From IMG/VR virus record IMGVR_UViG_3300006802_000073, positions 64,001 through 128,000 of that record: DNA of 64,000 nt. One strand, 5' to 3'. Below, piece after piece: positions 5,714 through 23,901 of the stretch. The notes beneath the pieces are model-generated. The model was not told the DNA's origin and did no database searches. It worked only from the letters and a program-made list of their open reading frames with translations. Positions within the stretch are counted from its first letter, which is position 1; the number at the start of each line of letters is the position of its first letter. Origin of the DNA: a virus. The position numbers were made by a program, and so were the translations under genes.

Positions 5714-7082
5714 TTTTGATATCTGAATAATTCCTTTCAAATTTTCTATTAAGATTAAAAGATTCTTCCTCGCCCGCATCAGTGATACCTTTTTGTGCAG
5801 ATTCTTCTAGATCATATAATCGCATCTTTGCTCTATCTATACCCAAAAGAAATCTTTTATTTTTAGAAGGATCACGATATCTGCTTTTAAGTTGTTTAAC
5901 CATAACCTGGCTTTGTTTTTCCAGATCTTCAGTATTAATTAACGCAAACATAAAATCTGCAGTTGCTGGTAAACCAAAACTTTCAGATGTATCTGTTAAT
6001 TCTACATCTGTATTACTATAACCCGATCTTGTAGTTTGTGTTGCTGACCAAATTGGAACATTAAATTCAACTGCCAATCCTCTCAATTCTTCAGCAATCG
6101 ATTTAATAATAATATAAGAGTTTGCTCCTGAACTAGGTTTAAACCGTGAACTAGAACAGATGTTAAGATAATCAATAAAGATGGCATCTGGTATAAAGTT
6201 TCTCTTTAACTTCAGTTCATTTAATAAAGTTTTAAAATGACCAACATGTGCTGAAGCAGTTGGATACTCTTTAATAATTAATTTACCATTAGTTTTATTT
6301 GTTATCTTTGCTACTCTATCAATGAAAATATGTTTAGGTAAATCTTTTAGTTGATCAATTTGTGTATTAAGTAAGTTTGCATCAATTCTTTCAGCAATTC
6401 TTTCTTCTGCCATCTCCAATGTAATATATAAAATATTTTTACCTTGATTTAGATAAGAAGAAGCTACATGACATAGAAATAAGCTCTTCCCCCCACCAGT
6501 GCCAGATAAAATAATATTTAAAGTTTTATTTGGAATACCATTATTTGTGATCAAATTCATATAATGTAAATCAAATGGAATTCTTGCCTCTACACGATTA
6601 TAAAACTCAAATCTACTTTCAGCATCATCTAAATAATCATGCCCTACAGAAGTATCAAAACATACACTTAATGCTTCTTGAAGCAAAGATGGAATTCCAT
6701 CTTTAGAATGTACTTTGTCTCTACCATCAATAATACTAATGGAGTTTACAATAGCATTATAAACAGCTCTATCTTTACAATATTTTTCTGTTTCGTTCAA
6801 TAACCATTCTATATTAGATTCTTTTGTTGTTAATGTATCTAGATGATTAATGAGATCAGAATAAGTATCCTCATTTAAAGTTTTATCATTATGAAAAGCA
6901 ATAGTTAAAGCATCTTTAGATGGCTGTGTATTATACTTTTCTATAAATTCTGATATATGCTTGAAAAGACTCTTTGTAGTAGATTCTGTAAAATATTCCT
7001 CCTTGAGAAAGGGGATAACCTTTCTCATATAATCTTCGTTGTGAATTAAGTTAGATAAAATTGTTTGTTCAATACTTGTCAT
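5709..7082 (-). CDS. gp41: replicative DnaB-like helicase (T4 gp41)
   Basis: Walker A SGTGGGKS, YITLEMAEERIAERIDAN, IFIDYLNIC, SATQTTRSG, SESFGLPATADF. Confidence 0.97.
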   Translation of the reverse strand: MTSIEQTILSNLIHNEDYMRKVIPFLKEEYFTESTTKSLFKHISEFIEKYNTQPSKDALTIAFHNDKTLNEDTYSDLINHLDTLTTKESNIEWLLNETEKYCKDRAVYNAIVNSISIIDGRDKVHSKDGIPSLLQEALSVCFDTSVGHDYLDDAESRFEFYNRVEARIPFDLHYMNLITNNGIPNKTLNIILSGTGGGKSLFLCHVASSYLNQGKNILYITLEMAEERIAERIDANLLNTQIDQLKDLPKHIFIDRVAKITNKTNGKLIIKEYPTASAHVGHFKTLLNELKLKRNFIPDAIFIDYLNICSSSRFKPSSGANSYIIIKSIAEELRGLAVEFNVPIWSATQTTRSGYSNTDVELTDTSESFGLPATADFMFALINTEDLEKQSQVMVKQLKSRYRDPSKNKRFLLGIDRAKMRLYDLEESAQKGITDAGEEESFNLNRKFERNYSDIKI

Positions 7083-7365: not shown

Positions 7366-8401
7366 TTTCATACTCCTCATCAATATCTGAATCAGAGTTC
7401 ACCATATTAGTTTGACTCATCTTATAGGTTTGTTCAATATATTGCTTAAATTCATTTGATTCTATAATAGAAGACCAAAATTCTTTTGTATAGGTATCTT
7501 TTTGTCTATATTTGGAAGTATCTCCTGCTTTTTGATACCATCCATTGCTAGGTTTAGTAACAAATCCACCTTCAAGGGCGATATCAAGTAATCCTGACCA
7601 TTTGCTAATGCCACCTTCAAATGATACCTCAACAGGAATTTTTGATTTTTCTCGCACATGACGAGATTTCTCTACATTGATAATAAACTTATAACCTGTA
7701 AGCTCAGAACCATCTTTTTCTTGTTGTCGTCCGATAATATAGATGTTATCACTACCATAATATGCACCGGTTCCTCCACCTACAATATCTTTAGGAAACA
7801 TACCAATTTCTTTATAAGTATGATTAACTACAATCATAGGGATATTTTTAATTGTCAGATGTGGAGTAACCATTCTAAATAAAGACTTTAATTGTTTTGC
7901 TCTAGACATATCAGCAACAGATTTACCTTCTAAAGCATCTTCAACCTCTTTCTTTGATGCAAGATTACCGATAGAGTCAATTACAACTATAACACGATCA
8001 TTTCTATTAATATTAGATAATTGAGACATTACATCATGTTTTAATTGCTCAATATCTGTAATCGGAGTATGTAAAACTTTATCTGTATCAATACCAAATG
8101 ATTTAAAATATGTTTGTGGAGAGCCAAATTCTGAATCATAAAACAATACAACAGCATCTTCATATTTGGTAAGATAAGATTTAGCTAACATCAAGGAGAA
8201 AGCACTTTTAAAATGTTTTGAAGGTCCTGCAAACATAGTAAGACCTGGTGCTAATCCTCCATCTAAACTACCAGATAAAGCAACATTTAAAATTGGAATT
8301 GGTGTAGGAATTAAATCCTTTTCAATGAAGAATTTCGATTCAGTGAGAATTTCTGATTCTTTAATTGTAGATGATTTTTTTAATTTTTCTAGTAATGACA
8401 T
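7355..8401 (-). CDS. uvsX: RecA-like recombinase UvsX
   Basis: AGPSKHFKS, FYDSEFG, IDSIGNLASKKE, VADMSRAK. Confidence 0.97.
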   Translation of the reverse strand: MSLLEKLKKSSTIKESEILTESKFFIEKDLIPTPIPILNVALSGSLDGGLAPGLTMFAGPSKHFKSAFSLMLAKSYLTKYEDAVVLFYDSEFGSPQTYFKSFGIDTDKVLHTPITDIEQLKHDVMSQLSNINRNDRVIVVIDSIGNLASKKEVEDALEGKSVADMSRAKQLKSLFRMVTPHLTIKNIPMIVVNHTYKEIGMFPKDIVGGGTGAYYGSDNIYIIGRQQEKDGSELTGYKFIINVEKSRHVREKSKIPVEVSFEGGISKWSGLLDIALEGGFVTKPSNGWYQKAGDTSKYRQKDTYTKEFWSSIIESNEFKQYIEQTYKMSQTNMVNSDSDIDEEYENVE

Positions 8402-21042: not shown

Positions 21043-21073
21043 TTGTAAAAAATTATTTATTTTTACCTCTTTT

Positions 21074-21149
21074 TGGTCTCTCTGCCTGGATTTGAACCAG
21101 GACCTCTACGTCCCAAACGTAGAACGCTACCGGATTACGCCACAGAGAG
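21074..21149 (-). tRNA. tRNA-Pro(UGG)
   Basis: CTACG-TTTGGGA-CGTAG, TTCAAAT, CCA. Confidence 0.92.
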
Positions 21150-21167
21150 TTTTCTGAGTTATCGAGT

Positions 21168-21428
21168 ATAAGTGCTTCTTTCCCGCGGCGGTAACTATAG
21201 CGCATCAGAAACCGCGTAGTCGCAATCCCATCACGCACGCCCCATCCGCTTCACGACCGGGAAAGATTTTCGCATTGCCAGCGTCAGTTAGGTTGGACTG
21301 CGGTTTTCACCGGAGCAGATTCTCCATTCCCATTACTAGGAGTAGGCACTTGCTCAAACCACCCGTAGGTATCATCCTACTTCTCATCGTGCGGGTCACA
21401 CTAGCTGTTGATTAGACAGCACGTTCGT
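21168..21428 (-). ncRNA. candidate structured ncRNA (~260 nt, family unknown)
   Basis: GC-rich, no credible ORF, many helices including GNRA-capped hairpins and a 9-bp long-range helix (21177-21185 with 21258-21266). Confidence 0.65.
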
Positions 21429-21439
21429 CTATAACAATT

Positions 21440-21562
21440 CTATTTCCAAAAGAATCCTATAATAAATCCTGTTATTTTTAATAACTTTCTTTTAATCTTA
21501 CGTCTAAATAATGATCCTAAATCTCTACTACGTTGAAATTCTTTTCTTAATAAACTATTCAT
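21440..21562 (-). CDS. possible 40-aa basic peptide
   Basis: MNSLLRKEFQRSRDLGSLFRRKIKRKLLKITGFIIGFFWK*; no clear RBS. Confidence 0.3.
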   Translation of the reverse strand: MNSLLRKEFQRSRDLGSLFRRKIKRKLLKITGFIIGFFWK

Positions 21563-21629: not shown

Positions 21630-21706
21630 TGGTGCCCCGTCAGAGACTTGAACTCTGCCTTATCCGTTATGAGCGGATTACTCTCGACCAGGTGAGTTAC
21701 CAGGGC
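21630..21706 (-). tRNA. tRNA-Met or Ile2 (CAU)
   Basis: ATCCG-CTCATAA-CGGAT, TTCAAGT, CCA. Confidence 0.85.
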
Positions 21707-21755: not shown

Positions 21756-21765
21756 GATAAATCTA

Positions 21766-22101
21766 TTATAACAGAATTTTCTTAGCTTTGTCAAGTGTTA
21801 TCTTTAAGTTATAATCTTTTACAAGATACTTTGCAAAAAGAGTTCTTCTATTAGCAGGGCAATGTTTTAATTGTTCTTTATATGCTTCTACTTCACAATT
21901 AAGTCTATACTTTTCACTAAAAAGATACATAATACCATGAAAAAGAGGATTTTTCCACCATTGCTTAACATGAATCTTTTCATGCTCTAATAGTCCAATG
22001 TCATCTTTATATTCTGGACGAATGAAGATAAAAGGTCCTCTTGTAGTACCAGCAGAATTTTTCAAAACAAATAAATTTGTGTAAAAAACTTTATAAAACA
22101 C
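21766..22101 (-). CDS. HExxH-containing hypothetical protein
   Basis: GPFIFIR...LLEHEKIHVKQW...EVEAY. Confidence 0.65.
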   Translation of the reverse strand: MFYKVFYTNLFVLKNSAGTTRGPFIFIRPEYKDDIGLLEHEKIHVKQWWKNPLFHGIMYLFSEKYRLNCEVEAYKEQLKHCPANRRTLFAKYLVKDYNLKITLDKAKKILL

Positions 22102-23221: not shown

Positions 23222-23788
23222 TTACGTACTTTTTTGTTTAGATCTTGAATAATCTGGTAAAAAATCTGAAAGAAATTTCATCTGATCATGCAATATACTT
23301 CTATTCTGTAATATTAATCCTTCAGCTCTATCAGGAGTATATGGTATATATAATAATTGCATATTGCATTCTTCTAATAACATATCATCTTTATAAGAAT
23401 TGCATCGAGTACATGCAGTAACACAATTTGTCCAAGTATTAAGTCCACCTCTTGAAACCGGAACAATATGATCTTTTGTTAATCTGTTATCAGAATACTT
23501 TTTTCCGCAATAAGCACACAGATAAAGATCTCTTCTAAAAAGATTTCTATTACTTAATGTAGGAGTTCTACCTTTATAATAAAAATTAGTTTTAAGTGCA
23601 ATGATAGATGATATCTCAATTTTTGATTGAAGACCTGTTATTCTAGAAATTCCACCTCTAAACATAAAGTCTTTATCACCATATTCCCATGCAATCAAAC
23701 CTTTACATTTTAAAATAACTGCATCTTGCCATGGTAACCATGTATGAGGATATCCTCCTTTATTCAAAGCTAAAATGAGATTTTGCAT
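23222..23788 (-). CDS. HNH endonuclease (McrA-like)
   Basis: NLFRRDLYLCAYCG...TKDHIVPVSRGG...WTNCVTACTRCN. Confidence 0.9.
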   Translation of the reverse strand: MQNLILALNKGGYPHTWLPWQDAVILKCKGLIAWEYGDKDFMFRGGISRITGLQSKIEISSIIALKTNFYYKGRTPTLSNRNLFRRDLYLCAYCGKKYSDNRLTKDHIVPVSRGGLNTWTNCVTACTRCNSYKDDMLLEECNMQLLYIPYTPDRAEGLILQNRSILHDQMKFLSDFLPDYSRSKQKST

Positions 23789-23806: not shown

Positions 23807-23901
23807 TGGTCCTCCCAGTAGGATTCGAACCTACGACCTCACGCCTATCTAGCGCTAATACTGGGTATAAACCAGCTGCTCTACCGCTGAGCTATAGGAG
23901 G
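23807..23901 (-). tRNA. tRNA-Ile(UAU) with extra arm
   Basis: GCTGG-TTTATAC-CCAGT, 25-nt variable region, TTCGAAT, CCA. Confidence 0.8.

Follow-up and report, generated by a model that had tools for sequence, protein, structure and literature searches.

Species 1 and 2 of T4 (rnaC and rnaD) are stable RNAs that are not tRNAs, encoded in the T4-type tRNA cluster on the same strand as the tRNAs and abutting them, and, judging from the annotation, presumably released by the same processing. ROOL, an RNA of phages and prophages, runs to several hundred nucleotides (nt). Both ROOL and GOLLD are orphan, structured and pseudoknotted RNAs, often found in or near tRNA islands, and have no known protein partner (PMC12286853). 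Here we describe an element of comparable setting in a T4-like marine myovirus, located on the minus strand of a 64,000-nt stretch of DNA (positions 64,001 to 128,000 of the 149-kb IMG/VR virus record IMGVR_UViG_3300006802_000073; this whole stretch is referred to as the window). It represents a large and widespread class of structured phage RNA that has its own fold and is not yet catalogued, and almost certainly is the gene for a real conserved structured RNA.

The likeness to ROOL and GOLLD is that of an orphan pseudoknotted phage RNA in tRNA islands. The element differs from both in having no covariance-model match to either and in its unrelated helices and conserved motifs, its family is so far confined to uncultured viral contigs, and at ~200-260 nt it is smaller than GOLLD, members of which often exceed 800 nt (PMC12286853). 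With rnaC and rnaD it shares strand, position in the cluster and abutment to tRNAs. However, these RNAs are 139 and 119 nt long, respectively, and rnaC ends in a tRNA-like T-arm whereas the element has none; a search of the T4 region that includes both (69500-74500, nhmmer --max) gave no match at E ≤ 100. As in tRNA and transfer-messenger RNA (tmRNA) genes, the element fills a tRNA-sized slot with the strand and spacing of tRNA genes, but without an acceptor stem, T-arm, CCA or tag open reading frame (ORF). A T-box riboswitch was considered and rejected: nothing resembling a terminator lies between 20800 and 22200, the adjacent downstream gene is a tRNA at a distance of 21 nt, and there is no regulated ORF.

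The element stands out in its 32% GC genome by a GC content of about 52-55% (0.53-0.545 over 21100-21399), compared to ~0.27-0.33 in its flanks. An earlier sequence-only reading had drawn attention to this GC-rich stretch upstream of tRNA-Pro, proposing a multi-junction non-coding RNA that is neither tRNA, tmRNA, RNase P nor group I intron and that tRNA processing would set free from the cluster, and naming comparison with Rfam, a homologue search and covariation analysis as checks, with a coding function as a possible refutation. Its expectations were borne out: no existing family was matched, at least 143 homologues were found, and covariation is present. ARAGORN called no tRNA or tmRNA at the element while detecting the flanking tRNAs, and Rfam 15 gave no match overlapping it in the window, even at E ≤ 10 with relaxed filters. 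The 4227 models in this release include ROOL, GOLLD, raiA, OLE, HEARO, RNase P, tmRNA, T-box, 6S, SRP, group I and II introns and all self-cleaving ribozymes. Rfam searches of 10 homologous loci (E ≤ 1) returned tRNA-type and weak tRNA-derived matches only, none of them on the element, and in ARAGORN runs over all loci the elements fall between tRNA calls, with no cloverleaf or tRNA-like domain. No ORF longer than 46 amino acids (aa) lies wholly within the element; a 61-aa ORF (21053-21238) merely enters its 3' part from the tRNA-Pro gene. The family profile (nhmmer) found a single match in the 149-kb genome (G000 85173-85426, equal to window 21173-21426; E 5.9e-42) spanning profile positions 2-201, which makes the window copy a full-length family match and the gene single-copy in its genome.

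Two motif scans of IMG/VR identified at least 143 full-length homologues, 118 of them unique, with a median length of 204 nt, a conserved core of ~200 nt, a mean pairwise identity of 0.73 (minimum 0.47) and 63 clusters at 90% identity. An nhmmer scan of 80 regA-linked loci yielded one homologue (L018, 67% identity), the pairwise alignment of which with the window copy displays compensatory changes and long invariant blocks. Scanning with an invariant 16-mer gave 67 viral contigs, ~45 of which carry true homologues, and a second, independent search with a gapped 3'-domain pattern gave at least 119 loci, with a full-length copy in 107 of the 110 new ones; the homologue count is therefore a lower bound. 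Carrier contigs include those of T4-like phages and, at the upper end, contigs of 200-347 kb. No counterpart was found by blastn ('distant') with five family members against 50,697 isolated-phage records, the only hit being a 26-nt chance match (E 0.6). In prokaryote genomes the gapped 3'-domain pattern produced no homologue by nhmmer among the 120 matches listed, all of them chance matches; by our own arithmetic ~270 such matches are expected in 596 Gb, and the scan argues against common cellular copies without proving absence. An exact-motif scan with CCGGTGAAAACCGCAG gave 8 loci, every one a chance match, and a synteny search via a tRNA-Pro motif and the neighbouring 111-aa protein gave 7 loci, none of which holds the element. 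Close relatives L020 and L024 have complete arrays of 23-26 tRNAs without the element, indicating a patchy distribution. The searchable literature yielded no account of the family, which may be included among 8,495 unnamed IMG/VR candidate RNAs (PMC10690425).

A fold model was built from RNAalifold (31 sequences), mutual information (118 sequences) and inspection, and its 49 proposed pairs were evaluated on a structure-blind MAFFT alignment (A3) of 118 sequences against 500 shuffles. In the alignment 97.0% of cells are paired, compared to 80.7% in shuffles; compensatory (double) changes occur in 38 of the 49 pairs (834 cells); and the covariation score is 0.469, as against 0.173 in shuffles and 0.06-0.09 in slid-register controls. 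Not one of the 500 shuffles reached any of the observed structure measures. The covariation supports a predicted fold of eight nested helices, a kissing loop between P1 and P3, and a GGUGGU hub that pairs two ACC loops. In profile numbering, a 5' tail (GAACGU) precedes P1 (8-12/20-24), P2 (27-31/35-39), P3 (49-52/59-62) and the hub GGGUGGU (64-70), of which 65-67 pair with the P2 triloop and 68-70 with the ACC of the P4 loop. The family loops of P3 and P5 are GUGAYA and UGGCAAU, and a 3' arm, in which a conserved bulge of 8 nt separates P6 from P6a and a conserved 7x8 internal loop separates P6a from the variable hairpin P7, leads to the 3' tail AGAGCAU.

Individual contacts are replaced in ways that preserve pairing. 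The closing pair of P2 is C-G in 61 copies, G-C in 52 and U-A in 4, another P2 pair is G-C in 96, C-G in 14 and A-U in 7, and a lone pair between the last P5-loop nucleotide (U21274) and the P5/P6 junction (A21267) is U-A in 107, C-G in 10 and U-G in 1, thus 100% paired. The P1 loop (A21412, U21411, C21410 in the window) kisses the P3 loop through a first pair that is G-C in 63 copies and A-U in 39, and the contact is wholly exchanged for AACG/CGUU in a subclass and for GUUAC/GUAAC in a variant class. The contact between hub and P2 triloop is nearly invariant, but for each of its three pairs a rare variant restores pairing (loop AUC facing hub GGAUGGU in L211 and L203; ACA with GUGUGGU in L217; GUC with GAC in L166 and L180). 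The last two copies also strand-swap the second hub contact, that with the P4 loop, which is less strongly supported (G-C 114, C-G 2, plus wobble changes). Pairing between the 5' tail and the GAUGAG junction over 3 bp is tentative, with 91% of cells paired and one pair showing 5 double changes. The long, near-invariant purine-rich junctions are unpaired, and about half of the nucleotides are conserved outside Watson-Crick helices. The invariance of the P2/P3 junction GAUGAGAAG derives in part from the first search pattern; it is still present in the set found by the 3'-domain pattern. A hammerhead-like reading of GAUGAG...GAA was ruled out, the order of elements being wrong and no model matching.

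All family elements (P1-P7, the P1/P3 kiss and the hub with its two ACC loops) map to complementary bases in the window (Table 1), where alignment offsets at P4, P6 and P7 were resolved by eye; the P4 coordinates were read directly from the sequence because MAFFT misplaces its 5' strand in insert-bearing copies. The length of ~260 nt originally proposed holds for this copy (~256 nt) but not for the conserved core of ~200 nt, the remainder being an optional domain that 13 of the 118 unique copies have in full or shorter form. When 8 copies with the long insert are aligned, compensatory changes occur in 9 of 16 predicted pairs of this domain, the helices of which (GAGCA/UGCUC, UCCUA-GUAA-UGGGA and CGGU-GAAA-ACCG) the sequence-only reading had already recognized. 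It had likewise anticipated P1 as a GCUGU/ACAGC stem and P6, a perfect 9-bp helix in the window (UCUUUCCCG/CGGGAAAGA), both of which covary. Other proposals needed amendment. The hairpin GUAGG-AUGAUA-CCUAC is retained over four base pairs as P3 (21376-21379 with 21366-21369) and supported by covariation, without the outermost G21380-C21365, a position that is G-C in 88 and G-A in 26 of 118 copies and thus not conserved as a pair. From a proposed 5-bp helix ACCCG/CGGGU, A21396-U21361, C21395-G21362 and C21394-G21363 remain as a tertiary contact and the other two pairs are lost, C21393 and G21392 belonging to the strongly covarying local hairpin P2. A long-range AAGUGC/GCACUU pairing has to be abandoned, since most members lack the AAGUGC insert and insert-bearing members have not kept the complementarity. 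The internal loop of the window copy is shortened and altered (AUGGGG / UAUAGUUA), with AUGGGG replacing GUGGAAG.

Table 1. Window coordinates and strand of the element, its structural parts and the flanking features.
Feature	Coordinates	Strand	Observations
Whole RNA gene, ~256 nt, from 5' GAACGU to 3' AGCACU tail	21171..21426	-	Boundaries from family alignments
P1 hairpin GCUGU/ACAGC (21416-21420 with 21404-21408)	21404..21420	-	5/5 pairs with compensatory changes
P2 hairpin GUGUG/CGCAC, ACC triloop 21394-21396 pairing G21363 G21362 U21361	21389..21401	-	Covariation
Near-invariant purine-rich P2/P3 junction GAUGAGAAG	21380..21388	-	Column conservation, 118-sequence alignment
P3 hairpin UAGG/CCUA, loop AUGAUA as kissing partner of the P1 loop	21366..21379	-	4/4 pairs with compensatory changes
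Hub strand GGGUGGU	21358..21364	-	GGU 21361-21363 pairs P2 loop; GGU 21358-21360 pairs P4-loop ACC 21291-21293
Optional 57-nt insert domain between hub and P4	21301..21357	-	Three-way junction, two GNRA-capped hairpins
Insert helix GAGCA/UGCUC	21351-21355 with 21313-21317	-	Covariation
Insert hairpin UCCUA-GUAA-UGGGA	21328-21341	-	Covariation
Insert hairpin CGGU-GAAA-ACCG	21301-21312	-	Covariation
P4 hairpin CAGU/ACUG, loop CCAACCUA with ACC	21285..21300	-	Four stem-proximal pairs covary in family
P5 hairpin CGC/GCG, 7-nt loop UGGCAAU	21271..21283	-	Inner pair C-G 95, U-A 23
3' arm	21177..21266	-	P6 21258-21266 with 21177-21185; 8/8 P6 pairs covary
Conserved bulge GUCGUGAA in 3' arm	21250-21257	-	
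P6a	21246-21249 with 21188-21191	-	P6a pair C-G 94, U-A 15, A-U 8
Conserved internal loop and variable hairpin P7	~21200-21240	-	P7 pairs covarying 5/6
Sigma-70-type promoter, consensus (TTGACA, 18 nt, TG-TATAAT)	21765..21794	-	Head of tRNA/RNA cluster; hexamers 12/12
tRNA-Met(CAU)	21630..21706	-	ARAGORN and Rfam; 202 nt upstream of element, same transcription unit
tRNA-Pro(UGG)	21074..21149	-	ARAGORN and Rfam; 21 nt downstream of element

Across the family the RNA occupies a 'tRNA slot' in an array, the window copy sitting between co-oriented tRNA-Met and tRNA-Pro. A tRNA is found within 3 kb in 138 of 143 copies and at least five in 121, and all 1755 tRNAs within this distance are on the strand of the RNA. 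An upstream tRNA with encoded CCA ends no more than 3 nt before the first G of the RNA in 89 of 143 copies, the next tRNA starts no more than 10 nt after its end in 50, and both flanks abut in 38. The identities of the flanking tRNAs vary (Tyr, Ser, Asp, Met, Pro and others upstream; Cys, Ala, Lys, Thr, Ile and others downstream). Other copies directly follow a promoter-like box (TATAAA(A)G in several loci, TTGACG-17-TAGAAT in L018), and the box ATAGAATTG is common to the window and other copies. As copies abut either a tRNA or a promoter-like box, both routes seem to place the 5' end at one and the same nucleotide. A discrete RNA delimited on its 3' side by RNase P and on its 5' side by tRNA 3'-end processing or transcription initiation would be expected to show this pattern, and with such strong backing from the family context we consider it probable that the RNA is released from a tRNA precursor as a discrete species. 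No tightly linked protein family was identified among 142 loci; the commonest neighbours, a metallophosphoesterase (42/142) and an RNase H-like PF04308 protein (39/142), lie at a median distance of ~2 kb and look lineage-related rather than partner-like.

Several further non-coding features were noted in these and related contigs. Element-bearing arrays (e.g. L118, L128, L172, L195 and L209) hold other conserved non-tRNA spacers of 90-430 nt in families of 6-35, which are probably further RNAs or missed tRNAs. Six contigs (L100, L101, L113, L115, L122 and L127) contain a variant RNA class (e.g. L101 ~6650-6930, minus strand) that has P1-P5 as in the family, a different 3' domain and a 5-bp GUUAC/GUAAC kissing contact, and follows a TATAAAG promoter-like box; in L101, L113, L115 and L127 it is located ~30 nt upstream of a 124-aa ORF (MSSQVIEG...). 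L012, a tRNA-rich viral contig without the element that was fetched via the tRNA-Pro motif, encodes a permuted tmRNA (7844-8286), and the element-bearing L128 (412-503) and L152 (6224-6304) have tRNA-like sequences with weak tmRNA scores ~200 nt upstream.

We propose that the RNA would be transcribed from the cluster promoter together with the tRNAs, in the same direction and with no intervening terminator, and that host tRNA-maturation enzymes would cut it out of the polycistronic precursor. RNase P cleavage at the next tRNA (tRNA-Pro in the window) would set its 3' end, while its 5' end would be set by cleavage or trimming at the CCA of the upstream tRNA or, in some copies, by its own promoter. 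The RNA would then accumulate as a stable trans-acting species and may bind a partner via its conserved junctions. Because it has many invariant unpaired or tertiary nucleotides, lacks a linked protein and occurs in very different lineages, this partner is most likely universally conserved in bacteria and tied to tRNA or translation, so that the ribosome, tRNA itself and enzymes that process or target tRNA are the most likely candidates. The presence of one copy per phage, a patchy distribution and a compact, multiply pseudoknotted core also point to action in trans. Judged from the sequence data, we give even weight for and against the RNA acting in trans on a tRNA- or translation-related partner, and the statement as a whole, that of a phage-specific structured RNA that is cut from a precursor, stable and trans-acting, we favour only slightly, as determined by its weakest link. 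Several points weigh against it. Folding of the single sequence gives an energy that does not stand out (minus strand, z = -1.15; plus strand, z = -0.77), so that the case rests on comparative data, and the two search patterns in turn build in part of the sequence invariance of the family. In the window, the upstream tRNA lies at a distance of 202 nt and a 40-aa ORF intervenes; the 5' end of this copy is therefore unexplained by tRNA processing. Lastly, the description 'tRNA or translation related' is drawn from genomic association alone.

More specific functions can be envisaged. The RNA may represent a new functional class, a pseudoknotted RNA from a tRNA precursor that engages tRNAs or the enzymes cutting them, and as such could be a docking or catalytic RNA maturing the phage tRNA array or a decoy against host anti-phage tRNA nucleases; we regard this as unlikely at present. 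Similarly doubtful is that it docks onto tRNA in the manner of RNase P, T-boxes and the L1 stalk, its 3'-arm internal loop and GGU/ACC recognizing the elbow and/or CCA, for purposes that could include tRNA-array maturation, tRNA-status sensing or diversion of host tRNA nucleases. The RNA is tied to tRNA arrays, and GGU-ACC pairing is the chemistry used by RNase P and T-boxes on CCA ends, but according to the rare-variant rescues GGU and ACC pair with each other inside this RNA. What it shares with the RNase P S-domain, T-box Stem I and the L1 stalk is only a purine-rich internal loop between helices and a link to tRNA, a possible analogy, whereas no Rfam RNase P or T-box model matches even at E ≤ 10, visual inspection shows no P4/CR-I/CR-V core, and specifier and antiterminator are missing, with no terminator or other expression platform downstream. 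The double T-loop module common to these RNAs (RNase P J11/12-J12/13, T-box Stem I apex, L1 stalk) has invariant AGNNA...UGNNA pentaloops (PMC3664808). The family consensus loop UGGAA fits the UGNNA half, but the AGNNA half is absent, the opposite strand being UAUAAUUA, and the window has AUGGGG instead of GUGGAAG; on this check of sequence alone the module was rejected. Tending the other way, tRNA-targeting defences are a known pressure on phages (PMC12851939). A ribozyme that cleaves itself at its own 5' boundary to free the 3' end of the upstream tRNA, or another catalytic RNA, would account for the 62% of copies that start 0-3 nt after a tRNA CCA, a junction that RNase P cannot cut, and ribozymes typically have a core of this kind, compact, pseudoknotted and with numerous invariant purines left unpaired. 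We nevertheless think it improbable, as ordinary self-cleavage would leave a 2',3'-cyclic phosphate on the tRNA that would block charging, no Rfam ribozyme family matches, and many copies, including that of the window, have no preceding tRNA, some starting at a promoter-like box.

By analogy with ROOL and GOLLD, phage RNAs near tRNA islands that form cages (PMC12286853), the element might be a smaller RNA-only homo-oligomer assembled via self-complementary single-stranded motifs, cages being possible for RNAs under 200 nt (bioRxiv 10.64898/2026.07.01.735769). Conserved unpaired palindromes are indeed present (ACGU in the 5' tail, UAAUUA in the internal loop), but short palindromes are frequent by chance, the window has UAGUUA in place of UAAUUA and a subclass lacks the 5' ACGU, making such an assembly quite improbable. 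We attach very little probability to a cis-acting role, either as a signal governing the processing or stability of adjacent tRNAs or as a riboswitch-like leader, in which case the element would not be a stable RNA. Its location within a tRNA transcription unit and the position of the related variant class upstream of the 124-aa ORF would suit such a role, but the flanking tRNAs differ between phages, no expression platform or terminator follows, and the size and tertiary complexity exceed the needs of a processing signal. That the element is not an RNA gene at all, being captured GC-rich foreign DNA, a protein gene in decay or a coding region of the other strand, could be argued from a GC island sharply unlike the genome and from ORFs of at least 70 aa antisense to the element in 14 loci. 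However, the window has no sizeable ORF inside the element (the limit of 46 aa given above), element boundaries coincide with tRNA ends, and substitutions in the 118 sequences are compensatory in helices and loop-loop contacts, which coding constraint does not produce; this explanation is effectively refuted by the structure test.

The regA gene of the phage (24532-24966, minus strand) is nearest to those of Pelagibacter phage Mosig and cyanomyophages. On the minus strand the cluster runs from the promoter through a split tRNA-like sequence, tRNA-Met(CAU), the 40-aa ORF, the element and tRNA-Pro(UGG) to tRNA-Leu(UAA). Between 21755 and 21580, a tRNA-like 5' half (GGGUCUAUAGCUUAAUGGUAAAGCAGCGGACUCA...) is followed by the intact tRNA-Met(CAU) (21630-21706) and then by a tRNA-like 3' half ending in CCA, which looks like one tRNA nested in, or splitting, another. 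The 40-aa ORF directly upstream of the RNA (21440-21562, minus strand; MNSLLRKEF...ITGFIIGFFWK) has a basic N-terminus and a hydrophobic tail, and no homologue among the fetched loci. Elsewhere in the window, a tRNA-Ile(UAU) with an extra arm of ~20 nt (23807-23901, minus strand) has an HNH endonuclease gene immediately downstream (23222-23788, minus strand). A permuted two-piece tmRNA with the tag ANDAFYTEEYALAA is present elsewhere in this genome, beyond the window (G000:C1:28891-29274, minus strand). Two-piece tmRNAs are typical of alphaproteobacteria, and a SAR11-type host therefore fits.

The stable RNAs of phage tRNA clusters, namely T4 species 1 and 2, ROOL and GOLLD, have long been without a worked-out function, and the present family adds an abundant member. 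It is found in T4-like phages and in phages of more than 300 kb, and in none of 50,697 isolates, and therefore marks biology that is invisible in model systems. At ~200 nt the RNA is small enough to be handled in biochemical and structural work, its pairing map is well supported by covariation and its ends are predictable from the flanking tRNAs. Whatever its function, it lends itself readily to definition as a new Rfam family and to structure determination. Should it prove to act on tRNAs, on their processing or on tRNA-directed immunity, the contest between phage and host over translation would gain a layer at the RNA level, and if it does engage tRNAs, it would be the first viral RNA-based, tRNA-directed counter-defence or processing factor.

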